A stretch of DNA of 64,000 nucleotides from Calditrichia bacterium (GTDB lineage: Bacteria; Calditrichota; Calditrichia; RBG-13-44-9; J075). This document shows, piece by piece, positions 2,605 to 20,202 of this stretch; position 1 is the stretch's first letter; each line of letters starts with the position of its first letter. The notes under the pieces were generated by a model. It did no database searches. It was not told the origin of the DNA and worked only from the letters and a program-made list of their open reading frames with translations. The translations under genes were made by a program, and so were the position numbers. The stretch covers positions 3,383,272 through 3,447,271 of the forward strand of contig JACKAQ010000001.1 of the NCBI GenBank assembly GCA_020634975.1. Direction: 5' to 3'.

Positions 2605-5600
2605 TTATTGCGACAGCCAAACCCGGATCAGCGAAATGAGGTGTTCCTCGTCCACCGGTTTCGGGAGAAAATCGTTTGCGCCTGCGGAGAAACAGCTATC
2701 GCGGTCGCTTTGCATCACTTTGGCTGTCAGCGCGATAATCGGCGTATTTTTAAAAATTTCCTGGCTGCGAATTTGGCGCATCGCTTCAAAACCGTCCATT
2801 TCCGGCATCATGATATCCATTAAAATCAAATCCTGATGCGGATCGGATGCCAGCATTTTTAACGCCTGCACGCCGTTTTTGCCTGTGCTAACCTTCATCC
2901 CTCGGGATTCCAGAACTTGTGTCAGCGCAAACAGATTGCGCATGTCATCATCAACCAGCAGAATTTTCTTGCCTTCGATGATTTCTGCTTTTGCCGGCAG
3001 CGATTCAACCATCTGTTGTTGATTTTCCGGCATTCTTTCGGTCAGGCGATGCAAAAATAAATTCGTTTCATCCAACAGTTTTTCCGGCGGACAATGGCCT
3101 TTTTTGAGCACTCGCTGCGCCAGTAATTGCAATTGTCCCTGCTCATCCGGGGATAATTCTTTTCCGGTGTAAATAATTACGGCTGGCAAGGTGACATTCG
3201 GCTGAGACTGCAACGATTCCAGCAAATCAATTCCGGACATATCCTTCAACCCCAAATCCAGAAGAATACAGTCAAATTCATCTTTGTTCAAAACATCGAT
3301 AGCTTCCGTACCGTTGGCAAAAGTGGTGATTTGCAAATCTTCGCTGGCAAAAAAATCGGCTAAATTTTCGCGCAGGTTGTCGTCGTCCTCAACAATCAGC
3401 AGCTTTTTGGGATAGCGTTCCGCGATCCGTTCGATTTTCAGAAATGCCGATTGCAATTGCTCAACCGAAACCGGTTTGTGCATCACGCCGATTGCGCCGA
3501 GTTTTAAGGCATCGTCCAGCGCCGATTGCCCGGAAATAACGTGCACGGGAATATGGCGGGTGACTGAGTCATTTTTTAGTGTATCCAGCACATTCCAGCC
3601 GTTTCGCCCGGGTAAACCGAGATCGAGAATGATACCGTGCGGCATTAACTGTTGGGCAAATTGCAAACCGGTATCGCCATCGCCGGCAATAATGCCTTTG
3701 AAATTCCGATCGTGGACAAATGTTAGCAAAATATTGGCAAATTCCGGGTCATCTTCGATAATCAGAATTACGCGGTCACCGCTTTCCAGATTCGCACGAT
3801 CATCCTTTATCGCAATTGGCTCGGGTTTGGGCTCGGGAACAGACATGTTTTCCACCAAAAAATCGACGTTTTGGGGAGGCGTCAATATTGCATCGTGTTC
3901 GGCGGGAATAATCCCGGACGATTGGGCAGGTAAAATAATGCCAAAAGTGCTGCCGATGCCCGGCTCGCTTTCGAGATACATTTCGCCGCCCAAAATATTT
4001 ACCAACTCGCGGGAAATGGATAGCCCCAAACCGGTGCCGCCATATTTGCGGCTGGTTGTGCCATCTGCCTGCTGAAATGCTTCGAATATCAGCTGATGTT
4101 TTTCGGGGGCAATGCCAACGCCGGAATCGCGAACGCTGATAATCAGCGCCGGATTTTCTGCCAGCGACGCACGCTGCAATTTTCGCTTCCCGTTGAAGCT
4201 GCGAACATCGATTGTCACGCCACCGGATTCGGTAAATTTGAATGCGTTGGAAAGCAAGTTTTTCAGCACCTGGCTCAGCCGGAGCGAATCCGTATCGATC
4301 ATGCCCGGTGCATCTTTTTCATAATTGATGGCGAAATCCACACCCTTTTGCTCTGCGATATGTTGGAACTGTAACTCGATATCGGACAACAGGTTACGTA
4401 AATCAGTCGCACGGATATCAATTTGTAATTTACCGGATTCAACTTTCGAGAGATCCAGAATATCGTTAATCAGCGTGAGCAAATCCGTACCGGCGGAGTT
4501 GATAATTTGGGCATAGCGAATCTGCCCCTCGGTAAGATTTCCGGTTTTGTTTTCCGATAGCATTTTGGATAAAATGAGCAAACTGTTCAGCGGCGTGCGC
4601 AACTCATGCGACATATTCGCCAAAAACTCGGATTTGTATTTATTGGCAAGCTCCAGATCGCGTGCTTTTTCTTCAACCAGTTTTTGGGCGATTTTCAATT
4701 CTTCATTTTTGCGTTTTAACAACGTTTGCTGTTTTTCCAGCTCGTGGGTTTGCGCTTCCAGCTCTGTATTGGAGGTTTGGAGCGCCTGTTGTTGCAGTTG
4801 CAGTTGTTTTTCAGATTGTCGCAGCGCTGCGGTTTGTATTTCCAGCCGTTCATTTGCTTGACGCAATTCTTCCTGCTGAGTGCGTAATTCTTCAGCCTGT
4901 TTTTGAGTGGCTTCCAGCAAATCTTTCAGTTTTGTGCGCGATTCCGCCGTTTGAAAATTTATGGCGATATTGGGATTTACCTGCTCCAAAAATTGCAATT
5001 CATTTTCCGTAAATTCCCCAAATTTGCCAAGTTCGATAGCGCCGATAATGTTGCCTTCGTAAATAAATGGCGTAACCAGCACATTGGCAGGTGTTGATTC
5101 ACCTAATCCTGAACGGATACTCAAATAGCCATCCGGCACATTTTTCAGGAGTATGGTTTTTTTCGTGAGCGCAGTTTGGCCGACCAAACCTTCGCCGATT
5201 TCAAATGTTTTTTGGTCATCCTGCCGGATAGCCAGCGAGTAGCTCCCCACCATCTTCAGCCGGTGCTGATCCGGCAATAAATAAATGGCGCCAACCTGCG
5301 CATCCAAATATCCGCACAAAAACTGGATCACGTTTTGAGCCATTTTTTCAATGCCCAGCTCGCCGCTCATGTGCGTGTGCAGTTCGGTTTGTCCCGTTTT
5401 CAACCAGTTTTGCTGGGTGTTTTCCTGCGATATTTCGATGAGATTGCGCTTCATTTGTTCCAGCGCATTGCCCAAAACATCCGCTTTGCTGCGAACGCGA
5501 ACGGAATATGAATAATCGCCCTGCCCGATGGCATTGGCGGCGCGGGTTAGGTCTTTTGTCGCGTCGATCAGCGATACAAACGCTTTTGCCAAAAACCCGA

Positions 5601-6312
5601 ATTCATCCCTCGTTGTAACCTGCAAAGCCACATCAACTTTGCCCTGCGCCAAATTGTTTGCTGCATTTACAATTTCATTCAACGGTTTGTCGATTGACCG
5701 GATGATGTAATAACCGAGGATGCTGAACAGCACCATCACGATAAAAATAACCGAATTGGTGAGCAGCGTCGATGCTTCATAATTGGTTTTGGTAGACCGG
5801 AATGCCTCGGTCATTTTAACTTTATTTTCGCGGGTTTTGTCTGCCAGGGTGGTTTTGATGCTGTTATACTGCTCTTTCATCACTTCCAGCGCGGCAATGG
5901 TTTCCTCATTAAATTCACCCAAAATCATGCGTCGGACGTTTTTGTCTGCCAATCGATAATAAATTGCCAGATCTTTTTCCATCCGGTTCAAAATTTCTTC
6001 GGAAATGGTGGGATTCATTCTGCCGGTATTCAATTGCAGTAGAAAAACTTTATACAGAGAATCTGCAATAACCAACTCATCTTCATCGGCGGCGGCAACG
6101 GCATTTTGCATGGCATATTGCAGCGAAAGCAGCGTTTCTTCCAGATCGCGGCTAAGCTCCAACGCCGACACATAACCGGTTTCAATTTCCGATATCAGTT
6201 GCTCATTGTTATAGCGGAAAAAATAATTGCTCATTACAATAATCACAAAAATCAAAATGGAGATAATTACCATTAATGATATTTTGTCGCGGATTTTAAG
6301 TTGACTAAACAT
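2605..6312 (-). CDS. hybrid sensor histidine kinase/response regulator (TM, HAMP, GAF-like, coiled coil, HisKA, HATPase_c, three receiver domains)
   Basis: There is an N-terminal TM segment and a HAMP-like segment. A long QQ/EL-rich coiled coil follows. The H-box is 'MSHELRTPLNSL' and G-box motifs 'GGTGLGLSIS' are present. Three REC domains carry conserved 'DLGLPG', 'LLDLGL' and 'ILMDIMMPEMDG' aspartates. Confidence 0.85.
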   Translation of the reverse strand: MFSQLKIRDKISLMVIISILIFVIIVMSNYFFRYNNEQLISEIETGYVSALELSRDLEETLLSLQYAMQNAVAAADEDELVIADSLYKVFLLQLNTGRMNPTISEEILNRMEKDLAIYYRLADKNVRRMILGEFNEETIAALEVMKEQYNSIKTTLADKTRENKVKMTEAFRSTKTNYEASTLLTNSVIFIVMVLFSILGYYIIRSIDKPLNEIVNAANNLAQGKVDVALQVTTRDEFGFLAKAFVSLIDATKDLTRAANAIGQGDYSYSVRVRSKADVLGNALEQMKRNLIEISQENTQQNWLKTGQTELHTHMSGELGIEKMAQNVIQFLCGYLDAQVGAIYLLPDQHRLKMVGSYSLAIRQDDQKTFEIGEGLVGQTALTKKTILLKNVPDGYLSIRSGLGESTPANVLVTPFIYEGNIIGAIELGKFGEFTENELQFLEQVNPNIAINFQTAESRTKLKDLLEATQKQAEELRTQQEELRQANERLEIQTAALRQSEKQLQLQQQALQTSNTELEAQTHELEKQQTLLKRKNEELKIAQKLVEEKARDLELANKYKSEFLANMSHELRTPLNSLLILSKMLSENKTGNLTEGQIRYAQIINSAGTDLLTLINDILDLSKVESGKLQIDIRATDLRNLLSDIELQFQHIAEQKGVDFAINYEKDAPGMIDTDSLRLSQVLKNLLSNAFKFTESGGVTIDVRSFNGKRKLQRASLAENPALIISVRDSGVGIAPEKHQLIFEAFQQADGTTSRKYGGTGLGLSISRELVNILGGEMYLESEPGIGSTFGIILPAQSSGIIPAEHDAILTPPQNVDFLVENMSVPEPKPEPIAIKDDRANLESGDRVILIIEDDPEFANILLTFVHDRNFKGIIAGDGDTGLQFAQQLMPHGIILDLGLPGRNGWNVLDTLKNDSVTRHIPVHVISGQSALDDALKLGAIGVMHKPVSVEQLQSAFLKIERIAERYPKKLLIVEDDDNLRENLADFFASEDLQITTFANGTEAIDVLNKDEFDCILLDLGLKDMSGIDLLESLQSQPNVTLPAVIIYTGKELSPDEQGQLQLLAQRVLKKGHCPPEKLLDETNLFLHRLTERMPENQQQMVESLPAKAEIIEGKKILLVDDDMRNLFALTQVLESRGMKVSTGKNGVQALKMLASDPHQDLILMDIMMPEMDGFEAMRQIRSQEIFKNTPIIALTAKVMQSDRDSCFSAGANDFLPKPVDEEHLISLIRVWLSQ

Positions 6313-6390: not shown

Positions 6391-8121
6391 CTATCTAACG
6401 GTTTTTCCTGCTACAACTTGCGAAATCACATGCTTCAATTCGTCTATCCGCAACGGTTTCGCCACATATCCGTCCATTCCGGCCAACAAACATTCTTCTT
6501 TGTCGCCTTTGATCGCGTTTGCGGTTAGGGCAATAATGGGAATATGCTTGTTTTGATTTTTTTCCATTTCGCGGATGTTGCGGGTTGCGGTCAGCCCATC
6601 CATTTCCGGCATCATCACATCCATCAAAATCAAATCGAAGGCATCATTTTTGAACAAATCGAGTGCTATTTGGCCGTTTTCGGCAATTTCTATGGAATGC
6701 CCCATTTTTTCCAGCACACGATACGCGAGTTTTTGATTGACGTGATTATCTTCCGCCAGCAAAATATGCAGCGATTGGGTATTTTCCGGGTGATCCATGG
6801 TCGTTAAATCTGGCAAATGATCATCCGCAGATTCTGTTTCGTCAATCGCTTGTTTCAGCACAATTGTGAAAATGAAACTGCTGCCGGGTGTCTCTGGATT
6901 CTGTTTCAAAAAATCGGTCGGTTTTTCGCTTAATTTGCCTTCCTGAACGATAGTATATGTATTTTCAGTGTTATGATTTGCCGGACTCTCAACCCAAATT
7001 TTTCCGTTCATCAACACGACCAGTTGCGAAGAAATTGCCAGCCCCAAACCTGTTCCGCCAAATTTGCGGGAAATGGAATTGTCAACCTGGGTAAACGCAT
7101 CGAAAATGTTTTCCTGCTTTTCCGGCGGTATGCCGATTCCCGTATCGGTGATGTTTAATTTCAAACAAATTTGGTCGTCATTTTGCCATTCCGGTGTAAT
7201 GCTAACATAAACAAAACCGTTTTCCGTGAACTTGATGGAATTGCCAATCAGATTGATAAGTATTTGGCGCAGCCGGTCCGGATCACCGATTACCACTTGA
7301 GGAATCTCATCAGAAATGTGGTATAAAAGCGCAATGTTTTTCTCTAAAGCCCTGAAACTGAGTGCACGCAATGTTTCGTGAATCAATTTGCGGATTTCGA
7401 AAGGAAACGTGGTTAGCTCCAGTTTTTGGGCTTCTATTTTGGAAAAATCGAGAATATCGTTGATTATTTTGAGCAGCGAATCTGCGGAGTGGAGGATCAT
7501 TTCGCTGTATTCGAGCTGTTCCTTCGAAAGATGGGTTTCCAGAAGCAGGTTGCTCATCCCGATGATGCCGTTCATCGGTGTGCGAATTTCGTGGCTCATA
7601 TTCGCCAAAAAAACGCTTTTTGCGCGATTCGCCCGGATAGCATCGTCTTTTGCCTGCTGGAGCATATCCATTTGCATTTTAAGCTGGACGTTTTTGATTT
7701 TCAGCAGCTCTTTTTGGCGAAACAAATCAACAAAAATATCAACTTTGCTGATCAGGATTTGCGGATCAACGGGTTTAAAAATGTAATCGACCGCGCCGGC
7801 GGTATAGCCTTCAAAAATATGGCGCTCATCTTTGCTGATTGCCGTAACAAAAATAATGGGAATATGGCGGGTGCGCTCTGCTCCGCGCATCAGCTTTGCG
7901 GTTTCAAATCCATCCATTTCCGGCATTTGAACATCGAGCAACACCAATGCAAAGTCGTTTTCCAGCAGCAATTCCAGCGCTTTGTAACCGGAGTCAGCCA
8001 AAAATAATTGGCGATCGGGTGCAGCCAGTACGCTCTCCATCGCAGTCAAATTTTCCTGGCGATCATCGACAATTAAAATATTTACAGTTTGACTTTGAAA
8101 ATTATCCAATAGGTTCTTCAT
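6391..8121 (-). CDS. hybrid histidine kinase (REC-HisKA-HATPase_c-REC), probably cytoplasmic
   Basis: The N-terminal receiver carries '[11 protein letters not shown]...[11 protein letters not shown]'. The H-box is '[19 protein letters not shown]', with '[10 protein letters not shown]' further on. The C-terminal receiver carries '[11 protein letters not shown]...[12 protein letters not shown]'. No TM segment is visible. Confidence 0.85.
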
Positions 8122-8208
8122 TGATCAGACAAAACTTTTTCCGGTTATCGAATCAGGTTTATATATAATATTAACAGGGAACTATGACGTTGTTCGCGAT
8201 CGGAAATT

Positions 8209-8673
8209 TTACTCGATCGAAATGGCGACTACCGGGAAATCCGCGATGTTGGTTTTTGTCGATACATAGCCGATAGCATTCGGGTTTTCTTCGATATATT
8301 TCAAAATTTCCAAATCGTTTGCTTTTTCCGGTGGCGGAATCCCCCGGCCGGAAAAAATCTGTTTTTGCCAGTAGGCTTTAATTTTGGAAACCTTTTTTTC
8401 ATGAATTTTGGTTGAAAAAGTTATGCGAACCGGTGCGTCTTCTTTAAGTTCGATGGGCAAAATCATCTCGTTATTTTCCCAGACTTGAACCTTCTTCAGA
8501 AATATTTCAGATAACTTGTTTTTGTCTAATACTTTGATAGGGTTGGACTTATGGACAATTACAACAAAATCTGACGGTTCCCCTGCATTTAAATTAAACA
8601 GCATGCAAAGGCCAAAAATACCAACCCAGATGTTCATTTTTTTATAGTGCATTTCGTTAATCCGTTTTTTCAT
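8209..8673 (-). CDS. small secreted periplasmic-binding-protein-like domain protein (PstS/PhnD-like fold)
   Basis: It has a signal peptide. The C-terminal motif '...NAIGYVS...' is typical of phosphate/phosphonate-type substrate-binding domains. It lies immediately downstream (same strand) of the hybrid kinase gene. The domain assignment is tentative. Confidence 0.45.
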   Translation of the reverse strand: MKKRINEMHYKKMNIWVGIFGLCMLFNLNAGEPSDFVVIVHKSNPIKVLDKNKLSEIFLKKVQVWENNEMILPIELKEDAPVRITFSTKIHEKKVSKIKAYWQKQIFSGRGIPPPEKANDLEILKYIEENPNAIGYVSTKTNIADFPVVAISIE

Positions 8674-8691
8674 CGTCTGTTTAAGCTCTGC

Positions 8692-9840
8692 TTAGAAACT
8701 GCTGGCCAAGCTTAAAATTGCATATCTGGTTTTAAGTTGGGATTGGATATAGGGGTTTATGTATTGATCTTCGACCAAAAATCCTTCGGTAGTATGTGCT
8801 TCCACCTTTATTACCAAATTTGCGGAAAATGCATAATTTAGGGCAACGCCAAAATCCTGATGGAATTTTTTATCTATATAAGTGCCGCCGATCAGATTGC
8901 CCATATCGAATGGTACGTAGAATTGATGAAATTTTATGGTTTCGTATTGCAGGTTCATCGACAAATCGCCAACCAAACTCAAACCACCCTGTATGTAATA
9001 GCTGTTCATGTAAAACGGAGAGTTGACAACGGAAATGATGTTGTCTTCCGCACGGATGGTAAATCGCTCGAAATCGCCTTCGATGGAAGCTAGATAGCTG
9101 GTAATTGACGGCTCTTGCAGGTTCGCTAATTGAACAAAACTTAATCCCCGCGTCAGAATTCCGTAATAGCCGCTAAATCCGAATCGCAATCCGTCGATGG
9201 GTGTGAATAACCAGCCCTGATAGCCAAATGCACGTTCAATGTCTGCTTCGTCTACAACCAACGTAACTTCGTTGGTTAAGAGTGATTGCAACTTATACCA
9301 TTCCAGCCAGCTCCATTGCCCGGCAAAAACATCACTACGAACGCTCCAGTTTTTCCCCAGTTGATGGGTGTAGCTTAGCACAATCCCGTTCACCGCTTCG
9401 CTGGAAGCACGGGATTCTGAATAAACAGAAGTTGGCGCCCGGTAAAACGGGAGCAGTACACTTACGTCCCGCAATTCGTTCATGATGCCTAATGGCATTT
9501 GCACTTTCCCGAATTTGATGGAAAATGCTGGCGAAAAATGGTGCTCGAAAAATCCCCAGTCCAATTCGAGATCTTGATTAACCAACATGGTTGGGTTTTT
9601 GCCGAGCCGTTTGTGCGCCAGTTGTACCACAAAGTTATTGGTTTCGTTAACGTCAAACCGGAATTGGAGTGCCAGATTGCGATAATCACTGGTGCCATCC
9701 GTTGGGATACCAAAAATCTGGTGATCATCGCTGATGGCAAATCCCTGCGTCAGATGTCCGAAAACCCGCAATTTAGACTGTCCGGAAACACTCAAAGACA
9801 GTGCTATAAATGCAATAAAAATAGTTGTAATGCGTTTCAT
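8692..9840 (-). CDS. outer-membrane beta-barrel (porin-like) protein, paralog 1 of 3 in tandem
   Basis: It has a signal peptide and the conserved N-terminus 'QSKLRVFGHLTQGFAISD'. The alternating beta-strand pattern ends 'RYAILSLASSF', a terminal Phe as in outer-membrane beta-barrel signatures. It is roughly 60% identical to the two neighbours. Confidence 0.7.
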   Translation of the reverse strand: MKRITTIFIAFIALSLSVSGQSKLRVFGHLTQGFAISDDHQIFGIPTDGTSDYRNLALQFRFDVNETNNFVVQLAHKRLGKNPTMLVNQDLELDWGFFEHHFSPAFSIKFGKVQMPLGIMNELRDVSVLLPFYRAPTSVYSESRASSEAVNGIVLSYTHQLGKNWSVRSDVFAGQWSWLEWYKLQSLLTNEVTLVVDEADIERAFGYQGWLFTPIDGLRFGFSGYYGILTRGLSFVQLANLQEPSITSYLASIEGDFERFTIRAEDNIISVVNSPFYMNSYYIQGGLSLVGDLSMNLQYETIKFHQFYVPFDMGNLIGGTYIDKKFHQDFGVALNYAFSANLVIKVEAHTTEGFLVEDQYINPYIQSQLKTRYAILSLASSF

Positions 9841-9963
9841 ACTATCATAGCCCCGTTAAAAAATTCACGACTTGTTACTCATCTATTATCGTGATTTATT
9901 AATATTTCATAACCCACTGGGTCAGTTTTTTTATCGGTTCGATCACAATGCTCTCAACTGTTT

Positions 9964-11109
9964 TTAAAAACTCGTTGCCAGGCTTAAAATTGCATATCTG
10001 GTTCGTAAGGCATCCGGCAGATAGGGCGTGGTAAATTGGTCCTCGACAAAAAAACCGTTGGTTGAATGAACTTCTAACTTTATCACAATATTCGATGAAA
10101 ATGTGTAGTTCAACCCGACACCAAAATCTTCATGTATTTTGCGGCTAATTTTTTTACCAAGTGGCACAATTCCCAGATCATAAGTGACAATAAAATCTTT
10201 AAAATCAACAACTTCGTATTGGGCATTCAGAACAAAATTGCTCCAGATATTTACGCCGGATTGCACATAATAACTGTTCATGTAAAACGGGGAGTTGACG
10301 ACGGATATGATATTATCTTCCGCCCGAACCAGAAATCGATCAAAATCACCCTCCACAGAAAACAAATAACTTGTCAGTGATGGCGCTTTGATGCCGGATA
10401 GCAACTCGCTAAGCCCATTTTCCGTATCGCCGAAATAGCCGCTGAAGCCAAAACGCAACCCATCAATGGGTGTCATTAGCCACGCCTGACAGCCGAAAGC
10501 TTTTTCAATATCAACTGTTTCGAGCTTTACTGAAAGCTCGTTCGATAAAATGGGTGCAATCAAAAGCCACTCCAGCCAACTCCATTGCCCTGCAAATACA
10601 TCGCTGCGGAATCTCCAGCCTTTACCAAGTTTTGTAGAGTAGCCAAAAACAATGCCGTTTACATATTCTCCGGAAGCACGCGATTCTGAGTAAACCGACG
10701 ATGGCGCCCGGTAAAACGGCAGCAAAACGCTAACATCACGCAACTCGTTATAAATGCCCAACGGCATTTGAACTTTGCCAAATTTGAGAAAAATTTCCGG
10801 TGAAAAATGATGTTCGAAAAATCCCCAATCCAGTTCCACATCATCTGCTTCCGATTGTGCTGGGTGTTTACCGAGACGTTTGTGGGCGATTTGCACGATC
10901 AGGTTGTTTTTTGGATCGATGTCGTATCGAAATTGTAAAGCCAGATTGCGGTAATCGCTGGAACCGGATGTCGGAATTCCGAAAATCTGGTGCTCGTCGC
11001 TAATGGCAAATCCTTGCGTCAGATGTCCAAAAACGCGCAGCTTGGATTGACCGGATATGTTCGCCGAAAGTGCAATCAAAAGCGTTGAGATGGTTAACAA
11101 ATATTTCAT
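9964..11109 (-). CDS. outer-membrane beta-barrel (porin-like) protein, paralog 2 of 3
   Basis: It has the same architecture and conserved blocks as paralog 1, including 'ELDWGFFEHHFSP' and 'GKVQMPLGI.NELRDVSVLLPFYRAP'. The C-terminus is 'LSLATSF'. Confidence 0.7.
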   Translation of the reverse strand: MKYLLTISTLLIALSANISGQSKLRVFGHLTQGFAISDEHQIFGIPTSGSSDYRNLALQFRYDIDPKNNLIVQIAHKRLGKHPAQSEADDVELDWGFFEHHFSPEIFLKFGKVQMPLGIYNELRDVSVLLPFYRAPSSVYSESRASGEYVNGIVFGYSTKLGKGWRFRSDVFAGQWSWLEWLLIAPILSNELSVKLETVDIEKAFGCQAWLMTPIDGLRFGFSGYFGDTENGLSELLSGIKAPSLTSYLFSVEGDFDRFLVRAEDNIISVVNSPFYMNSYYVQSGVNIWSNFVLNAQYEVVDFKDFIVTYDLGIVPLGKKISRKIHEDFGVGLNYTFSSNIVIKLEVHSTNGFFVEDQFTTPYLPDALRTRYAILSLATSF

Positions 11110-11249
11110 TCCGCATAAACCCCATTCCGTTATTTTAAACCGCTTCTCATCTATTATCGAGACTTAAATGGTTTTCATGATCAAAAAAATCGACCGTTTT
11201 TTGTTATAAAAGTATCGGTGTAAATTATTGGTTTACCGGGTTTATTTGG

Positions 11250-12401
11250 TTAAAATCCGGTTGCCAGGCTTAAAATCACAAAATTAGTTTTTAACGGTTT
11301 ATCCAGATACGGGTTAACGAAAACGTCTTCGTACAACAATCCGCGGGTTGTGTGCGCTTCCAGTTTCATCACAAAACCAGCCGAAAAAATGTAATTCAGT
11401 CCGATGCTGTAATCCCTGTGCAGTTCGCTATCCACATGTCGTTTGGGTAGAATTTCCCGCAGGTAAAACGGTACGATTATGTTTTTTGAATCGATCGATT
11501 CAAATTGAGCATTCAACACAAAGTTGTTCCAAAGATTAAAGCTGCTTTGCAAATAATAATTTTGTAGGTAGAATGGTGAGCCGGATACCGCAATAATATT
11601 TCCTTCCGCACGAAAAACCGCAGCATCGAAATCATATTCAAAAGATGCCAGATAATTTCCCACAGTCGGATTTTCCACCCCGGAGAGCACATTCAGCCCA
11701 AAACCATTTTTTGTGACGCCGTAATAGCCGCTAATGCCGGTTCGCAAGCCTTCAAGTGGGGTGTTTAACCATAATTGGGTGCCCAAAACGGATTCAATAT
11801 CAACCCGTTGTACGTTGGTTTTAAAACCGTTTCCCAACGGATTTTCTATATTTGCCCATTCTCCCCACCGGAATTGCCCCGCAAAAAAGTCGCTGCGAAT
11901 GCTCCAGCCTTTTCCGATGGGAAATTGTATTCCGAAAACCACCCCTTCAATGGCTTCGCTGGAAATACGGGATTCGGTATAAACCGAGGAAGGCACGCGG
12001 TAAAAAGGGATGAGTACACCTACATCGCGAACCTCGTTGAAAATACCCAGCGGCAGTGATACTTTCCCGAATTTGATGTAGCTCGAAGGCGTGGGGCGGT
12101 GTTCAAAAAATCCCCAATCCAGCTCGATATCCCTCGTGATCTCCATCAGCGGGTTTAAACCGAGCCGTTTGTGGGTGAGCTGAACGATAAAATTGTTAGA
12201 TTCGTTGACATCAAAGCGAAATTGCAGTGCGATATTCTGATAATCAGATGTGCCTTTCGATGGAATACCATAAATCTGGTGGTGATCGCTGATTGCGAAT
12301 CCCTGAGTCATGTGTCCGAAAACCCGGAGTTTGGACTGGCTATACAGCGGATTACAAAGCAAAAGAGCGAGTAAAAGTTGTGAAATTCGTAATTTTATCA
12401 T
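11250..12401 (-). CDS. outer-membrane beta-barrel (porin-like) protein, paralog 3 of 3
   Basis: It has the same family blocks, for example 'QSKLRVFGHMTQGFAISD' and 'IELDWGFFEH'. The C-terminus is 'LSLATGF'. Confidence 0.7.
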   Translation of the reverse strand: MIKLRISQLLLALLLCNPLYSQSKLRVFGHMTQGFAISDHHQIYGIPSKGTSDYQNIALQFRFDVNESNNFIVQLTHKRLGLNPLMEITRDIELDWGFFEHRPTPSSYIKFGKVSLPLGIFNEVRDVGVLIPFYRVPSSVYTESRISSEAIEGVVFGIQFPIGKGWSIRSDFFAGQFRWGEWANIENPLGNGFKTNVQRVDIESVLGTQLWLNTPLEGLRTGISGYYGVTKNGFGLNVLSGVENPTVGNYLASFEYDFDAAVFRAEGNIIAVSGSPFYLQNYYLQSSFNLWNNFVLNAQFESIDSKNIIVPFYLREILPKRHVDSELHRDYSIGLNYIFSAGFVMKLEAHTTRGLLYEDVFVNPYLDKPLKTNFVILSLATGF

Positions 12402-12582
12402 GACTCAACCGGTACTTTATAAATTTTTCAAACATTTGTACCAATACATAATCGTGTCTTTCAATTGAAAATTAAGATTAGAATTCAGGTTTTTGCATTG
12501 TTCCATTTCCATTGATTCACCACCTGCGAAATCTTATATTGGCCACATATGACGCGACATATACGTTAAACAGGAGGTAATT

Positions 12583-13911
12583 ATGGACTTGACAAAACAG
12601 ATGCAACGGGTAGCGGTTGTCGGTGCTGGCGGAAAAATGGGCAGCGGTATTTCGTTGCTTTTGGCGCAGGAAATGACCCTGCAATCGCTGCAATCGGAGC
12701 ATGTTGGCACAAATTTTCAATTAGCATTAATGGATATCAGCGCAGATGCGTTAGATGGATTGCAACAATATCTCGCCAAACAGACGAACAAATTTGCACA
12801 GAAAAATAGCGAATTGCTGACGGAATACTTTCCCGGTGATGATGCGACATCAATTGCAGAAAAATTTGTTGCAAAAATGCAATCGCTGCTGCGCCCGGTA
12901 ACCGATTTATCGGAAATCAGCAATCAGCAAATAATTTTTGAAGCCGTATTGGAAAAACTGGATCTGAAAGTCAATATTTTCAATCAGTTAAAGCAATCCA
13001 ATCCGGATGCGTATTTCATGAGCAACACCTCCTCCATTCCCATTCACGAGCTGGATGCGATTGTCGGAATGGGTGGGCGGATCATCGGTTTCCATTTTTA
13101 CAACCCACCGGCAATCCAGAAGCTGGTGGAGCTGATTATCCCGGAAAAAGTGGATCCCAAACTGCCGGAGCTTTCCAAAGCGATCGGTAAAAAACTGCGC
13201 AAAATCATTGTGCCATCCAATGATATTGCCGGATTTATCGGGAATGGGCATTTCATGCGCGACGGGTTGCATGGCATTCATGAAGCCGAGCATCTAATGA
13301 AAGAAGGCATGAGTTTCCCGCAGGCAATTTATACCGTCAACCGCATCAGCCAGGATTTTTTGCTGCGCCCGATGGGCATTTTTCAACTGATTGATTATGT
13401 GGGTCTGGATATTTTCCAGAGCATTTTGAAAATTATGAACCCGCATTTTCCCAAAGAAACGCTCCACAGCCGGTTGATCGACGGGCTTGTGGCAGCCGGT
13501 GTAAAAGGCGGGCAATTTTCCGATGGCAGCCAAAAAGATGGTTTTCTGAAATACGAAGGCGGCAAAGTTGTGGGTGTTTACGACAATGCTCAACAAAAAT
13601 ATTTGTCGATACATGAGGGGCGCTGGCAGGAAGTTATCGATTCGCAGATTGGCGAACTGCCGGAAAGCCACGAACCGTGGAAAACTTTGCTCAAAGATGT
13701 AGATCGCGATGGGAAATTACAGCGTTATTTTAGCGATCTTTCCGAAAGCCGGACGCTGGGTGCCAAACTGGCGATCAATTATTTGAAACATTCCAAATCG
13801 ATTGGTGAACATCTCGTAAGCTGTGGCGTTGCCGACAGCGCGGATGATGTGAACAGCGTTCTGATGAACGGATTTTTCCATCTCTACGGACCGGTGAATT
13901 CGTTCGTTTAA
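12583..13911 (+). CDS. 3-hydroxyacyl-CoA dehydrogenase family protein (NAD-binding N-domain plus C-terminal extension)
   Basis: The Rossmann motif 'VAVVGAGGKMGSGI' near the N-terminus is present. The 'FHFYNPPAIQKLVELI' block is typical of 3-hydroxyacyl-CoA / 3-hydroxybutyryl-CoA dehydrogenases. A good SD (AGGAGG) lies 6 nt upstream of the ATG. Confidence 0.7.
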   Translation: MDLTKQMQRVAVVGAGGKMGSGISLLLAQEMTLQSLQSEHVGTNFQLALMDISADALDGLQQYLAKQTNKFAQKNSELLTEYFPGDDATSIAEKFVAKMQSLLRPVTDLSEISNQQIIFEAVLEKLDLKVNIFNQLKQSNPDAYFMSNTSSIPIHELDAIVGMGGRIIGFHFYNPPAIQKLVELIIPEKVDPKLPELSKAIGKKLRKIIVPSNDIAGFIGNGHFMRDGLHGIHEAEHLMKEGMSFPQAIYTVNRISQDFLLRPMGIFQLIDYVGLDIFQSILKIMNPHFPKETLHSRLIDGLVAAGVKGGQFSDGSQKDGFLKYEGGKVVGVYDNAQQKYLSIHEGRWQEVIDSQIGELPESHEPWKTLLKDVDRDGKLQRYFSDLSESRTLGAKLAINYLKHSKSIGEHLVSCGVADSADDVNSVLMNGFFHLYGPVNSFV

Positions 13912-15981: not shown

Positions 15982-17202
15982 TTGAAACAATCTTTGACAG
16001 GAAACATTTTCCGGATGTTCAGTATTTTCTGCTGCATTTCTTTGCCGATGGTTGCCCAGGTTTGGACAATTCAAAACAGTGGCGTATCCGATCAGCTCAA
16101 AAGCGTTCACTTTGTCAGCAATTCTGAAGGCTGGGTTTGCGGCGATAACGGGGCATTGTTGCACACGGTAAACGCCGGTGAAACATGGTCCCGCGTTGCG
16201 GTTTTCAGCAGTGATCTGCACGAAGTTGCGTTTTTGGATGCGCAAACCGGCATCGTTTCCGGTGATGACGGGGCAATTTTGCGCACAACCGATGGCGGCG
16301 CAAACTGGAGCATTGTTAATAGCGGCACCAGTTCGCAATTGCGTGGCTGCGGTTGGGGTGCGGATGGCATTGCCTGGGCAGCAGGTCGTGATGGCGTGTT
16401 GCTAAAATCGACAGATTTTGGAGCAACCTGGACCCTTCAGCAAAGCGGCACAACCAACCGGATTCGCTCGATCGTGGGATACGGCAGCACTCACGCATGG
16501 GCAGTCGGCAACGATGGATTGATTCGCAGCACAGCAAATGGCAACAGTTGGGCAGCCCAAAACAGCCCGGTTTCGGACAATCTCGAAGATGTTCAATTTA
16601 TCAACACCAACGTGGGATTTGTTTCCGGCAGCGGCACAGTGCTGTTTACCGATAACGGCGGCGCAACCTGGGCAGTTCGTGGCAGTGGCGTCAGCGGCGA
16701 AACCAACGGATTGTATTTTACGGACGAATCCAACGGCTGGGTTGTGAATGAAATGGGGCAAATTTTCCACACAACCAACGGCGGCGTAACCTGGGCAACA
16801 GAAACAACCGGCACTTCCGGTATATTAAATGATGTGTTTGTTGCAGCCAACGGCGCTGGTTGGGCGGTTGGCGATAACGGCGTCATTTTGAAACATGCGC
16901 CACTCACCGGAATTGATGATGAGCCGGAAACCGCCGTTCGCGAAAATAAACTGGCTCAAAATTACCCGAATCCGTTCAATCCCGCGACAACAATTGCATT
17001 TAATTTGGCCAGTTATCAAAAGGTGCAATTAACCGTTTACAACATTGCCGGTCAACAGGTGGCGGAATTGATCAATCAACCGTTGATTGCGGGCGCGCAT
17101 TCGGTTACCTTTTCCGGGGAAAACTTGCCTTCCGGGGTTTATTTTTACGAACTTCGTGCCGGCAGTTTTAACGAAATTAAAAAAATGATGCTGGTGAAAT
17201 AA
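15982..17202 (+). CDS. secreted BNR/Ycf48-like beta-propeller protein with a C-terminal T9SS sorting domain
   Basis: It has a TTG start with an upstream GGAGG and a signal peptide. At least six 'G...T.DGG.TW' repeats of the BNR/Ycf48 type are present. The C-terminus 'NYPNPFNPATTIAF...VYNIAGQQVAEL...SGVYFYELRAG' is a classic type-IX secretion CTD. Confidence 0.75.
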   Translation: MKQSLTGNIFRMFSIFCCISLPMVAQVWTIQNSGVSDQLKSVHFVSNSEGWVCGDNGALLHTVNAGETWSRVAVFSSDLHEVAFLDAQTGIVSGDDGAILRTTDGGANWSIVNSGTSSQLRGCGWGADGIAWAAGRDGVLLKSTDFGATWTLQQSGTTNRIRSIVGYGSTHAWAVGNDGLIRSTANGNSWAAQNSPVSDNLEDVQFINTNVGFVSGSGTVLFTDNGGATWAVRGSGVSGETNGLYFTDESNGWVVNEMGQIFHTTNGGVTWATETTGTSGILNDVFVAANGAGWAVGDNGVILKHAPLTGIDDEPETAVRENKLAQNYPNPFNPATTIAFNLASYQKVQLTVYNIAGQQVAELINQPLIAGAHSVTFSGENLPSGVYFYELRAGSFNEIKKMMLVK

Positions 17203-17218
17203 ACCGGTCGATTATTTA

Positions 17219-17234
17219 TGGAACAATATTTGCA
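17219..17234 (+). promoter_or_regulatory. candidate sigma-54 (-24/-12) promoter TGGAAC-N5-TTGCA upstream of the cytochrome gene block
   Basis: The sequence is 'TGGAACAATATTTGCA', with GG and GC spaced by 10 nt as in the TGGCAC-N5-TTGCW consensus. There is one mismatch in the -24 hexamer. It lies about 75 nt upstream of the 17308 start. Confidence 0.4.
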
Positions 17235-17307
17235 AATCCAAACATGGTAACGTAATCCGGTGACACTTTGTATACCGGATTAACGGTTTTAATAACGATT
17301 AACAACA

Positions 17308-18219
17308 ATGATGCAGCCTGTGAAGAATACGCACACGAAAACCCAACGCGACTGGTTTAAAATTGGTTTGAAAATAGTTTATGTAATTTCGTTATCAATT
17401 TACGCATACTATTTGATAGACGGATTGGGATTTTACCAACTACCGTTTCAGGAACGTCCGCATCACGAGGCATACCGGAATTTGCGGTCCGCCGGATTGC
17501 GCGGGCACGGTTTTGGCATTATCGGTTCGCTGATGATGACGTTGATGCTCCTGTATTCTGTTCGGAAACGAACCAACTGGTTTGGCAAATGGGGCGCGAT
17601 CAGCCGTTGGTTGGATGTGCATATTTATCTCGGGATCATGGGACCACTACTGGTCATTTTGCATACTACCTTTAAGTTGAACGGCATTGTTGCGGTTAGC
17701 TTCTGGTCGATGATCGCGGTTTCCGGCAGCGGAATTTTGGGGAGATATTTGTATTTGCAAATTCCCCGGAACCGGCGCGGAGACGAACTCAGCCTGAAAG
17801 AAATTGAATCGCTCGATCAGGAATTTTCGGAAGAACTTTCCCGCGAACTGGGGCTGAAAAACGGTAAGCTTGCCCGGCTTCAGGAAATTGCCGGTGTGCA
17901 AAATGTAAACAAAGATGCCGGGTTGTTCAGTTTGCTGATGGGCATGCTCCGGTTCGACCTGTTCAGCTTTTTTCGTAAATACCGGCAGCAGCGGATGTTG
18001 CGGAAAGAATTCCAGCTGGACAGCCAGCAATTGAAAGCCGCAATCGAAATTTTGCATCGCAAACAATTGCTGGAACGCCGGATTTTACTGCTCAATCATG
18101 TTCAGCGGCTGTTCCATTATTGGCATGTGTTTCACAAGCCATTCGCGATTTTAATGTTTCTGATCATGATTTTACATATCGGCGTGGCAGTTTGGTTGGG
18201 TTACACATGGATTTTTTGA
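17308..18219 (+). CDS. polytopic membrane protein with conserved intramembrane histidines, possibly a b-type cytochrome / quinol-interacting subunit
   Basis: Several TM helices carry His pairs: 'WLDVHIYLGIMGPLLVILHTTF', 'LFHYWHVFHKPF' and 'MILHIGVAV'. The gene leads the multiheme cytochrome block. The functional call is an inference from the architecture only. Confidence 0.4.
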   Translation: MMQPVKNTHTKTQRDWFKIGLKIVYVISLSIYAYYLIDGLGFYQLPFQERPHHEAYRNLRSAGLRGHGFGIIGSLMMTLMLLYSVRKRTNWFGKWGAISRWLDVHIYLGIMGPLLVILHTTFKLNGIVAVSFWSMIAVSGSGILGRYLYLQIPRNRRGDELSLKEIESLDQEFSEELSRELGLKNGKLARLQEIAGVQNVNKDAGLFSLLMGMLRFDLFSFFRKYRQQRMLRKEFQLDSQQLKAAIEILHRKQLLERRILLLNHVQRLFHYWHVFHKPFAILMFLIMILHIGVAVWLGYTWIF

Positions 18220-18308
18220 CGCACTTCCGACAGCAGTGGACTCGGAGCGAACTCGAAGGGCAGATGCTAATTTTCATTTTCTTTATCAACGTTACGTAAA
18301 AAGGGAGT

Positions 18309-20027
18309 TTGACCATTCAATCAGCATGCATCTGGCAGCACATATTTTTTCGGTTTTGGCGAATCGTTTTTTTGTGGAATGTTTTTGCAGCAACCTTCGC
18401 AATTGCGCAGCTTTCGCCGGGCGATCTGCACCAGTCTCACGCCAAATTAGAGGGGTTGAGCAATTGCACCAAATGCCATTCCAGCGGCGCACAAATCGAT
18501 CTGGGAAAATGTCTCGATTGTCATAAATTGCTAAAACAGCGCATCGATTCGAACAAAGGGTTGCATGCCCGACCGGATTACAGTGATTGTGTCCACTGCC
18601 ACAACGACCATCACGGCAGAGATTTCGAAATGGTATTCTGGAAAGAGGGACAGGATAATTTTGACCATGATTTGACCGGTTACCGGCTGGAAGAAAAACA
18701 TGCCGAACTGAAATGCCGGGACTGCCATAAACCCGCCAATATCGCCGATCCGCAGCCGTTGCTCAATCAGGATAAAAATCTCGAACGCACATTCTTGGGA
18801 TTGCAGCAAGCCTGTTTAACCTGCCATGCGGATGAGCATCGCGGGCAATTGGCGGAAGATTGTCTGAAATGTCACACCTACAGCGGTTGGAAACCTGCCA
18901 ACCGTTTTGATCACGACAAAGCCAAATTCCGGCTGACCGGATTGCACCGGGATGTAAAATGTGTCGATTGCCACAAAGAAGAGCGTGATAATCGCACAGC
19001 GGACGACCCGACATTTGCCCGGTTTACGGGCATCGCATTTCAGAATTGCACAAACTGCCACGAAGATGTGCACCGGGGACAATTCGGACAAAATTGCCAA
19101 AAATGCCACAGCACTGCCGGCTGGAAAAAGCTGCTTGCCAATGCGGATTTCAATCATAATTTAACGCGATATCCATTGCGCGGCAAACACGCCACAGTTG
19201 CCTGCGAAAGCTGCCACAAACCCGGCATTCCGCGTCGCGGATTGGCATTTGCCAAATGCACCGATTGTCACACAGATTTTCACCTCGGGCAATTTGCGGC
19301 ACGTCCCGGCGGCATCGCCTGCGAAAATTGTCACACTGTCAAAGGGTTTTCTCCCGCGAACTTTACGTTCGACGATCACGCCAAAACGGATTATCCGTTG
19401 GAAGGCGCGCACCTTGCCATTCCCTGCATCGCCTGTCACGCGGGCACGCCAAACGGGCGTGGCAGTTCGCGATCAATGTTGCGGATCAACCGGTTTACCT
19501 TTGTGTCCACCAAATGCATCGATTGCCACAAAGACCCGCATTTCGGCGAAACCAAACGCTTTGTGGATATCAACGGCTGCGAAAGCTGCCATCGCGTGGA
19601 TAGCTGGCGGAGCATCGAATTCGATCACAGCCAAACCGATTTTGCACTGCTCGGCAAACATAACAGCACTGGCTGCATTCAATGCCACGTTCCGGCTGCG
19701 GAAACATCCGGCGGCAAAAGGATTCCGTTCCAGAATATGGCGCAGAATTGCCAACACTGTCACGCGGACAAACACAACGGTCAGTTTGTTACCACATTTG
19801 TTTCCGCCGGAAAAGAAATTCGAGGTACTGATTGCGCCCGGTGTCACGGCGAAGAAAATTGGCAACCGGTGAAATTTGATCATAATCGCGATTCCAAATT
19901 TTCGCTCGAAGGCGCACACGAAAAAGTTGCCTGCGAAGCATGTCACATGACTGTTGCGGAAGCGGACGTCACTTTCCGGCAATTTAAACCACTCGGCAGC
20001 GAGTGTTCGGATTGCCACGGCGGGTGA
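18309..20027 (+). CDS. multiheme c-type cytochrome, 20 CxxCH motifs, with an N-terminal hydrophobic anchor or signal
   Basis: The 20 counted CxxCH sites include CTKCH, CLDCH, CVHCH and CSDCH. Many are followed by a distal His. It has a TTG start with AAGGGAG immediately upstream. Confidence 0.85.
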   Translation: MTIQSACIWQHIFFRFWRIVFLWNVFAATFAIAQLSPGDLHQSHAKLEGLSNCTKCHSSGAQIDLGKCLDCHKLLKQRIDSNKGLHARPDYSDCVHCHNDHHGRDFEMVFWKEGQDNFDHDLTGYRLEEKHAELKCRDCHKPANIADPQPLLNQDKNLERTFLGLQQACLTCHADEHRGQLAEDCLKCHTYSGWKPANRFDHDKAKFRLTGLHRDVKCVDCHKEERDNRTADDPTFARFTGIAFQNCTNCHEDVHRGQFGQNCQKCHSTAGWKKLLANADFNHNLTRYPLRGKHATVACESCHKPGIPRRGLAFAKCTDCHTDFHLGQFAARPGGIACENCHTVKGFSPANFTFDDHAKTDYPLEGAHLAIPCIACHAGTPNGRGSSRSMLRINRFTFVSTKCIDCHKDPHFGETKRFVDINGCESCHRVDSWRSIEFDHSQTDFALLGKHNSTGCIQCHVPAAETSGGKRIPFQNMAQNCQHCHADKHNGQFVTTFVSAGKEIRGTDCARCHGEENWQPVKFDHNRDSKFSLEGAHEKVACEACHMTVAEADVTFRQFKPLGSECSDCHGG

Positions 20028-20202
20028 GAGTTGTGGACGCCGGGGACACCCGCATTCGCAGAGGCAGCAGTAAAGCTTTTTTGTCATTCCTGCGAATGCA
20101 GGAATCTCCCGGTTATTTCTTCGGGTATCATTTTATTTTTTTTCATAAGTTTTAATAAACTACTGTAAATAAACAAAATAGCACATAAAACAGAAGTGCC
20201 GA

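Follow-up and report, generated by a model that had tools for sequence, protein, structure and literature searches.

The window, a stretch of 64,000 nucleotides from a Calditrichia bacterium (assembly GCA_020634975.1, contig JACKAQ010000001.1, positions 3,383,272 to 3,447,271 of the forward strand), contains a tandem array of three genes for predicted outer-membrane beta-barrel proteins, here called copies A, B and C. The array is followed by the gene of a small secreted protein related to periplasmic binding proteins (PBPs), referred to as mini-PBP, and by the genes of two hybrid kinases. All of these genes are encoded on the same strand, and the array and the co-oriented downstream genes probably form an operon. 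A tandem triplication of porin genes is ordinary in itself; less ordinary are the barrel family and its coupling to a single-lobe PBP and to an unmatched sensor domain. The genes and domains concerned are the following:

11250-12401, minus strand: barrel copy A, 383 amino acids, first gene of the array, with signal peptide and C-terminal Phe (open reading frame and translation)
9964-11109, minus strand: barrel copy B, 381 amino acids, the copy used for the AlphaFold2 model
8692-9840, minus strand: barrel copy C, 382 amino acids, last in the array, ending 18 bp before the mini-PBP gene
8209-8673, minus strand: mini-PBP, a secreted PBP_like_2 protein of 154 amino acids, 18 bp after copy C
6391-8121, minus strand: soluble hybrid kinase REC-HisKA-HATPase-REC, 576 amino acids (domains from Pfam), whose position is kept in a Calditrichia relative
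2605-6312, minus strand: membrane receptor kinase, 1235 amino acids, with a first transmembrane helix, a periplasmic helical domain of about 156 amino acids, a second transmembrane helix, HAMP, GAF, HisKA, HATPase and three REC domains (domains from Pfam and transmembrane prediction)
5758-6225, minus strand: periplasmic sensor domain of the receptor kinase, about 150 amino acids, helical

The original prediction, which was made from the sequence alone, described three consecutive minus-strand genes of 381 to 383 codons with about 60% identity, a terminal-Phe signature and intergenic regions of 120 to 140 bp, and this description has held up. The open reading frames lie at exactly the predicted coordinates, the pairwise amino-acid identities are 54.5% (A-B), 53.0% (A-C) and 65.6% (B-C), so that 60% is a fair estimate, and the spacers measure 140 bp (A-B, 11110-11249) and 123 bp (B-C, 9841-9963). 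Each copy has a Sec signal peptide and a C-terminal Phe beta-signal, as expected of porins; the last two residues are SF or GF, and conservation of the terminal Phe (F381) reaches at least 90% among 102 family members. E-values down to 1e-251 among the copies and 120 database homologues indicate a resemblance far beyond chance. A likeness restricted to the signal peptide, which the original prediction had raised as a point to check, was not observed: the copies are alike from end to end, with conservation lowest in the signal peptide (15-50% identity). The flanking genes for the PBP-like protein and the two hybrid kinases proved to be real as well.

Fold and family of the barrels

The AlphaFold2 model of copy B, for which an alignment of 102 sequences was used as input, has a mean predicted local distance difference test score (pLDDT) of 93.4 and a predicted template modelling score of 0.88. 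According to DSSP, the model consists of 16 antiparallel beta-strands, which are connected by periplasmic turns of two to five residues and by longer external loops. Strand 5 is followed by an L3-like loop of 34 residues (residues 115-148 of copy B) with short helices inside. A Foldseek search of the PDB with this model retrieved OmpC, OmpF, OmpK36, PhoE, OmpU, PorB and OmpM1 with a probability of 1.0, template modelling (TM) scores of 0.55-0.67 and about 12% identity; the best 50 matches are all 16-strand porins, and the best fold matches among them are trimeric general porins. On the basis of the model, the three barrels are thus predicted to be outer-membrane proteins with a porin fold, in line with the proposed tandem triplication of an outer-membrane beta-barrel gene. 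By analogy with these porins, it is assumed that the L3-like loop folds into the lumen and that the pore is open, and the sequence conservation of strands b1 to b5 appears compatible with a trimer interface.

No Pfam or NCBIfam family matched copies A, B and C (0 Pfam families at E<=0.01), and a profile built from the three copies gave 0 matches at E<=10 among all PDB chains, OprP and OprO included. The assignment to porin, OprO/P and alginate-export families by hidden Markov models (HMMs), which had been proposed as a check, thus returned no match for the window copies. Membership in Porin_1 or Porin_4 was rejected since no profile matches, and membership in OprO/OprP (PF07396) was rejected since neither the copies match it nor the family profile retrieves any PDB chain. 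AlgE-type alginate exporters could also be discarded, as the barrel has 16 strands, not 18, and no Pfam match. When 102 relatives were scanned singly (max_evalue 0.1), 10 of them matched Porin_4 (best E 1.4e-05) and 8 gave a weak match to Porin_O_P (best E 7.6e-04).

A homologue search yielded 122 proteins from Calditrichia, KSB1, Thermoanaerobaculia and similar metagenome-assembled genomes (MAGs), nearly all of which are unannotated "hypothetical proteins". The size of the family was estimated with a profile that was run exhaustively against 1.84 billion cluster representatives (clusters at 50% identity) and returned 4614, 2515 and 695 representatives at E<=1e-3, 1e-10 and 1e-30, respectively. 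All comparative data are derived from MAGs and metagenomes, and open reading frame calling and HMMs were home-made. All family members that were found belong to uncultured Calditrichota, KSB1, Acidobacteriota and Gemmatimonadota, and they share the motif PLGIYNE[LI]RDVxxLLPFYRxP in the L3-like loop. The barrels are therefore a large, remote branch of the porin superfamily without a curated model.

The mini-PBP

The mini-PBP matches the Pfam family PBP_like_2 (PF12849) with 27.7 bits, just above the cutoff of 27. A profile of the protein recovers PstS proteins from the PDB (E 1.4e-06), and the match covers PstS residues of about 100 to 220 only. In agreement with this, the AlphaFold model (pLDDT 87.6) is aligned by Foldseek to 124 of 262 PstS residues with a root-mean-square deviation of 2.4 A and a TM score of 0.37 relative to the target. 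The mature protein has about 125 residues, which falls short of the two-lobe Venus-flytrap fold of about 260 to 350 amino acids. As judged from the model, the mini-PBP is a single-lobe derivative of the PstS family. It carries a signal peptide of the signal peptidase I (SPI) type without a lipobox, and the invariant, family-specific motif YWQKQIFSGRGxPPxE.

The S-G-T segment of lobe II is the anion-binding motif of PstS. In the alignment to the structure 1twy, the SSGT of the structure stands opposite "essa", followed by the invariant R83, and the window protein has KEDAPVR at this place. The mini-PBP gene has a G+C content of 37.8%, compared to 43-46% for the surrounding barrel and kinase genes. 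One relative, protein P0136, is a fusion of a mini-PBP and a C-terminal domain of TonB (TonB_C).

The kinases and the shared sensor domain

The periplasmic sensor domain of the receptor kinase gave no significant match in Pfam or the PDB, including a profile search of the latter. By BLAST, it is similar to the corresponding region of methyl-accepting chemotaxis proteins (MCPs) at two other loci (37% identity, E 2e-31 for L070; 41%, E 3e-30 for L024). In total, the domain is common to 18 receptors from several phyla, 11 of which are kinases, the window's included, and 7 of which are MCPs; its motif is LQDAVAAxD...NP...YxxLA. It might deserve to be defined as a separate domain family. The outputs of the partner receptors, i.e., the receptors encoded beside a mini-PBP, comprise HisKA kinases, HisKA_3 kinases with GerE regulators, MASE1 hybrid kinases and MCPs. 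A second group of partner receptors has a CHASE8-HAMP arrangement (8 of 35). Homology of the window-type sensor domain to CHASE8 was considered and rejected, as hhalign assigned it a probability of 0.2%.

Conserved gene linkage

The order barrel(s), mini-PBP and HAMP receptor is also found in other phyla. Among 72 assessable loci of species representatives, the mini-PBP gene adjoins a barrel gene in 41. A HAMP, kinase or MCP receptor is encoded next in 31 of the 34 mini-PBP loci with room for it, whereas a receptor is found near the barrel in only 1 of 31 loci without mini-PBP. A profile search with the sensor domain retrieved just five fragments, on contigs that end inside the gene, and the reciprocal linkage test was for this reason started from the mini-PBP. 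The motif of this protein identified 475 stretches in metagenome contigs. A barrel of the family is adjacent in 24 of the 31 loci with enough upstream DNA, and a receptor is present in 21 of the 41 loci with at least 700 bp downstream; all 21 receptors carry the window-type sensor domain. The linkage is conserved across at least four phyla, and this shared gene order lends strong support to the suggestion of a functional connection between the barrels and the PBP-like protein and kinases. Among the genes called in the module-bearing loci L001-L006 and L009, there is neither an inner-membrane transporter nor an ABC permease or ATPase. In one locus (L137), the position of the barrel is occupied by a TonB-dependent receptor.

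The gene order in the latter locus (L137, 655-4063) is mini-PBP, TonB-dependent receptor (Plug and barrel) and a receptor with the window-type sensor domain. A different neighbourhood was seen in four loci (L007 1-5607, L111 7405-8517, L118 7627-8478 and L168 2642-3679), in which the barrel gene adjoins genes for a MoxR-type AAA_3 ATPase, a DUF58 protein and VWA proteins, resembling a Bat-like operon. The loci with Bat-like genes lack an adjacent receptor, and the barrel occurs there with or without a mini-PBP. Large open reading frames of about 1105 to 1108 amino acids are located downstream in L111, L163 and L164; those of L111 and L163, the two that were scanned with Pfam, encode BTAD/AAA_16/TPR regulators of the STAND type.

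Origin and divergence of the copies

Two Calditrichia loci are syntenic with the window, one from a MAG and one from a complete chromosome (L001, L010). When 102 barrels of the family were placed in a neighbour-joining tree, the window copies each grouped with the positional orthologue in the relative (bootstrap values of 100 for A, 80 for B and 100 for C; the orthologues are designated A', B' and C'), and the three window copies and their orthologues form a clade of six sequences, which excludes every other locus with a bootstrap value of 100. The positional pairing and this exclusive clade place the triplication in the common ancestor of both organisms. It is lineage-specific: it is older than the divergence from one sequenced Calditrichia relative, and the other sampled Calditrichota do not share it. 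Arrays in other loci (L007, L012, L015, L016, L026, L054 and L060) consist of copies that are mostly their own nearest neighbours, which indicates independent duplications. As 8 of 10 Calditrichota loci contain multiple barrel copies, amplification seems to be a recurrent habit of this barrel family.

The orthologue dN/dS values of 0.12 (A), 0.22 (B) and 0.07 (C) are close to those of the neighbouring genes (0.08-0.13) and point to purifying selection on all three copies; the values were obtained by the Nei-Gojobori method, which is saturating. Whole-gene dN/dS (0.07-0.22) gave no sign of positive selection. Copies A and C are each 92% identical to A' and C'. Among the paralogs, nucleotide identity does not exceed 76% and dS is saturated, which rules out recent gene conversion and ongoing concerted evolution. 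An older candidate tract, in which B is like C (residues 240-285), has just 70% nucleotide identity.

Copy B is a mosaic in comparison with B': residues 21-180 are 92% identical with a dS of 0.34, and residues 181-381 are only 57% identical with saturated synonymous sites, i.e., they have diverged to the level of paralogs. The divergent part corresponds to positions of about 9964-10570 in the window and 10540-11146 in L001, and a donor for it was not found among about 220 family sequences. In copy A' of L001, a run of seven T residues instead of six in the window causes a +1 frameshift (L001 about 9219-9228, corresponding to window 11876-11891). Removal of one T restores a full open reading frame of 383 amino acids with 92% identity to copy A. 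The frameshift is present in the ENA and Logan assemblies, which may be based on the same reads, and could reflect a pseudogene, slippage or an assembly error.

Paralog identities were mapped on the predicted topology of copy B, with the following ranges:

L3-like loop: 74-91% identity between paralogs
strands: 58-69% identity between paralogs
periplasmic turns: 48-60% identity between paralogs
other external loops: 39-49% identity between paralogs
N-terminal half (b1-b7 plus L3): 64-78% identity between paralogs
C-terminal half: 43-57% identity between paralogs

The copies hence have a core in common, and most of their differences lie on the face exposed at the cell surface, in the surface loops, and in the C-terminal half. 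It had been suggested that the three porins specify related but distinct substrates. This is not favoured by the distribution of identities, as the most conserved element is the L3-like loop, which argues against three different substrates, and the most diverged elements are the surface loops. Most plausibly, the triplication diversifies the surface-exposed face and keeps the channel core. Phage or predator pressure, or different expression conditions, are possibly behind this diversification.

Spacers and regulation

A short box, TC[T/A]CGATAATAGATGAG, is common to the A-B and B-C spacers and is located 37 to 38 nucleotides before the respective start codons. A related CGATTAT box (CACGATTATG) is found upstream of copy A, 39 nucleotides before the ATG, and L001 has CGATAAT (TTCGATAATC) at the equivalent place. 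The regions concerned are:

11146-11166, minus strand: box TAAGTCTCGATAATAGATGAG in the A-B spacer, 37 nucleotides before the ATG of copy B, member of repeat family D6, identical in L001
9878-9898, minus strand: second copy of the box, TAAATCACGATAATAGATGAG, in the B-C spacer, 38 nucleotides before the ATG of copy C, kept in L001
12402-12582, no strand assigned: divergent intergenic region between copy A and a 3-hydroxyacyl-CoA dehydrogenase gene, holding the related CACGATTATG box

The exact 14-mer of the box occurs twice in the window, compared to 0.2 expected occurrences, and the box in the B-C spacer is kept in L001 although this spacer has changed further upstream. Its sequence would fit a candidate promoter -10 element (GATAAT) or a regulator site, duplicated with each gene. 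The number of sigma-70 promoters and intrinsic terminators found between positions 2400 and 12800 equals the expectation from shuffled sequences. On the gene strand of the spacers, the scans found nothing but weak 9/12 matches, and the copies are not set apart by terminators. Rfam gave no match for positions 8000-12700, and RNA folding of the three upstream regions was not significant in any case (z = -1.75, -1.56 and +0.85). The earlier assumption of a separate promoter for each copy is plausible: the conserved box before B and C and the related box before A speak for it, but the scans do not rise above the shuffled controls, and terminators are absent between the copies. Phase-like switching, which had been put forward as another possibility, has no support, since neither simple-sequence nor invertible repeats were found and all homopolymers have a length of at most seven.

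A possible trans-envelope sensory module

In the most likely reading, the barrels would act as an outer-membrane entry channel, which feeds a periplasmic co-receptor and a sensor; the probability of this reading is estimated at about 0.5. It builds on the observed fold, the size of the family, the date of the triplication, the purifying selection on the copies and the conserved gene linkage. The device would have three layers: an outer-membrane channel formed by one to three barrels, the secreted mini-PBP, and an inner-membrane receptor with a helical periplasmic domain of about 150 amino acids. A solute would cross the outer membrane via the barrel, in which the conserved L3-like loop and strands b1 to b5 would form a fixed eyelet. 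In the periplasm, the mini-PBP would recognize the solute or change its state in response and would then serve as co-receptor for the sensor domain of the receptor kinase (1235 amino acids), which in turn would signal through its HAMP domain into a phosphorelay including the 576 amino acid REC-kinase-REC protein. That a solute passes the barrel, that the mini-PBP binds the receptor and that signals run in this direction is inferred. During the triplication, the core would have been kept, the surface face and the C-terminal half diversified, and the upstream box retained with each copy.

Such a co-receptor has a counterpart in MBP, which acts on the chemoreceptor Tar. Signalling from a solute-binding protein (SBP) to a receptor has also been described for PstS and CtpL (PMC8050422). 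The MCPs among the partners and the lack of a transporter sharing the binding protein suggest that the pair of barrel and mini-PBP is an input device and not part of a kinase-controlled uptake operon. The TonB-dependent receptor in the position of the barrel and the TonB_C fusion fit a passage across the outer membrane followed by sensing in the periplasm. Several observations weigh against this proposal. With a single lobe and an unmatched S-G-T segment, the mini-PBP is unlikely to clamp a ligand in the classical manner, and CHASE8, which is present in some partner receptors, was not found in the window kinase. Furthermore, the trio is not obligate: the reciprocal scan contained 7 loci with barrel, mini-PBP and receptor, 8 with barrel and mini-PBP only and 5 with mini-PBP and receptor only, and about 40% of the family barrels are orphans without a mini-PBP.

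The same genes could be read in other ways. The three compartments are those of YfiB, YfiR and the CHASE8-HAMP receptor YfiN (PMC8085984), and porin-type barrels serve as sensory scaffolds in the complexes of RcsF with outer-membrane proteins (OMPs) (PMC4942254, PMC9907809). In the manner of these systems, the barrel might dock or sequester the mini-PBP without conducting a ligand; a perturbation of the outer membrane or the peptidoglycan would then lead to the release or capture of the mini-PBP, thereby altering an inhibitory or activating contact with the receptor. The CHASE8-HAMP group of partner receptors, the TonB_C fusion, the single lobe without an aligned S-G-T segment and the invariant surface motif of the mini-PBP, which resembles a protein-protein interface, would suit such a switch. 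However, the short and poorly conserved periplasmic turns would provide a poor docking surface, conservation peaks at the L3-like loop, away from the periplasmic rim, the signal peptide of the mini-PBP is of the SPI type and lacks a lipobox, and a TonB-dependent transporter in the barrel position as well as the common MCP partners are better suited to chemical sensing, so that envelope-state switching is considered unlikely. About equally doubtful is the idea that the barrels are uptake porins and merely targets of the two-component system, the kinases of which would sense a nutrient by other means and induce the porins and the binding protein, as PhoBR does with OprP/PhoE and PstS. The porin fold, the PstS-family relative next door and the few family members with a weak match to Porin_O_P agree with this idea, tandem amplification would raise the uptake capacity, and the ChiS/CBP/chitoporin system combines a kinase with a binding protein and a porin dedicated to the same substrate (10.1101/2020.01.10.902320, PMC3558487). 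Yet the called genes of the loci with the module (L001-L006 and L009) include no inner-membrane transporter, the mini-PBP corresponds to half a PBP with an unmatched S-G-T segment, and a dedicated periplasmic domain travels with the barrel/mini-PBP pair across output types. Moreover, many of the partners are chemoreceptors, which do not regulate transcription.

It also has to be considered whether the barrels are redundant general-diffusion porins, which diversified under pressure from phages, predators or bacteriocins, and whether the downstream genes are unrelated to them. Divergence is indeed concentrated in the extracellular loops, tandem duplications recur independently in many lineages, and the relative has one frameshifted copy and another with a replaced C-terminal half, as expected for surface proteins with a fast turnover. 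Nevertheless, this explanation is very improbable: the adjacency of the receptor is conditional on the mini-PBP (31/34 vs. 1/31; reciprocal 24/31) and extends over at least four phyla, which cannot be explained by chance. Since surface diversification can coexist with a sensory role, it would be an addition to the entry-channel reading more than an alternative to it. In its general form, the latter reading describes a three-compartment device, in which a channel, porin-fold or occasionally TonB-dependent, acts via an adaptor on a kinase or chemoreceptor, with barrel amplification diversifying the outward input at a fixed core and adaptor. This general form is held to be slightly less likely than not, and the device would be widespread in Calditrichota, KSB1, Acidobacteriota and Gemmatimonadota. 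Literature searches for a module of porin, PBP and HAMP receptor revealed no description, which is not proof of absence.

At least 695 clusters of barrels (50% identity, E<=1e-30) are without a match in Pfam, NCBIfam or PDB sequences, and these barrels are encoded alongside a PstS-like protein of half the usual size and receptors, both kinases and chemoreceptors, that have the unmatched periplasmic domain in common. If the link is functional, it would show how poorly studied uncultured phyla couple outer-membrane passage directly to signal transduction, and the barrel, the mini-PBP and the sensor domain would provide three new domain families for annotation. The combination of three paralogs, one adaptor and one receptor would then also be a tractable case for studying how the amplification of an outer-membrane gene tunes sensing.

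Neighbouring genes

The plus strand of the window encodes two very large multihaem c-type cytochromes, both with MtrC/MtrF-like and cytochrome c7/c3 domains, one at 18309-20027 (20 CxxCH motifs) and one at 20203-22152 (25 motifs). Before them lie the genes of a BNR/YCF48-like protein (15982-17202), which carries a C-terminal sorting domain for type IX secretion, and of a membrane protein resembling DUF4405 (17308-18219). These genes are found in the same order in L001, and the region 15982-22152 is a candidate extracellular electron-transfer cluster. At the other side of the kinase genes, the region 52-2574 of the plus strand holds the C-terminal part of a TonB-dependent receptor, which is cut by the start of the window, and after it a protein of 291 amino acids with a lipoprotein-type N-terminus (LIVGC), which has no family match. 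The receptor is SusC-like, and its counterpart in the relative contains CarbopepD_reg_2 and Plug domains. This pair is kept in the relative and is convergent with the kinase operon.

Comparison with known systems

The barrels resemble the general porins OmpF/OmpC/PhoE/OmpK36, OmpU and PorB in their 16 strands, short turns and long external loops, the long third loop, the signal peptide and the C-terminal Phe. They differ from them in sequence, with an identity of about 12% and no match to Porin_1, Porin_4 or PDB profiles, and in their location within a signalling cluster, as opposed to the stand-alone genes of general porins. A porin-type barrel within a trans-envelope pathway, which signals to a hybrid-kinase phosphorelay, is a feature of the RcsF/OMP system, as it would be of the proposed module. 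There, however, RcsF is a lipoprotein threaded through housekeeping OMPs that are encoded elsewhere; it has no homology to the mini-PBP, and the system has no dedicated barrel gene in an operon.

The YfiBNR (TpbB) system likewise comprises an outer-membrane part, a small periplasmic protein and a HAMP receptor that are encoded together, and CHASE8 occurs in some of the partner receptors described here. In contrast to the porin-fold barrel, the PBP fold and the kinase or MCP outputs of the present module, YfiB is an OmpA/Pal-like lipoprotein, YfiR does not have a PBP fold, and the output of YfiN is a GGDEF domain. Given the porin-fold barrel, the PBP fold, the kinase outputs and the absence of CHASE8 from the window receptor, membership in the YfiBNR type was rejected. 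The system of OprO/OprP and PstS of the Pho regulon shares a 16-strand porin, a periplasmic protein of the PstS family and a two-component system with the window; it differs in that the window copies have no match to PF07396, the PstS relative has a single lobe, and PstCAB are not among the called genes.

The gene of a binding-protein partner is coupled to that of a transmembrane kinase or MCP, as is characteristic of SBP-dependent receptors. In MBP-Tar, PstS-CtpL and CBP-ChiS, the transmembrane kinase or chemoreceptor likewise has a partner with a binding-protein fold, which is encoded together with it or acts on it. The module of the window is distinguished from these receptors by a half-sized binding protein, a channel gene within the module, an unmatched sensor domain and the lack of a transporter sharing the binding protein. 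In the ChiS system, the signal is admitted by a dedicated porin, as is proposed here for the three barrels.

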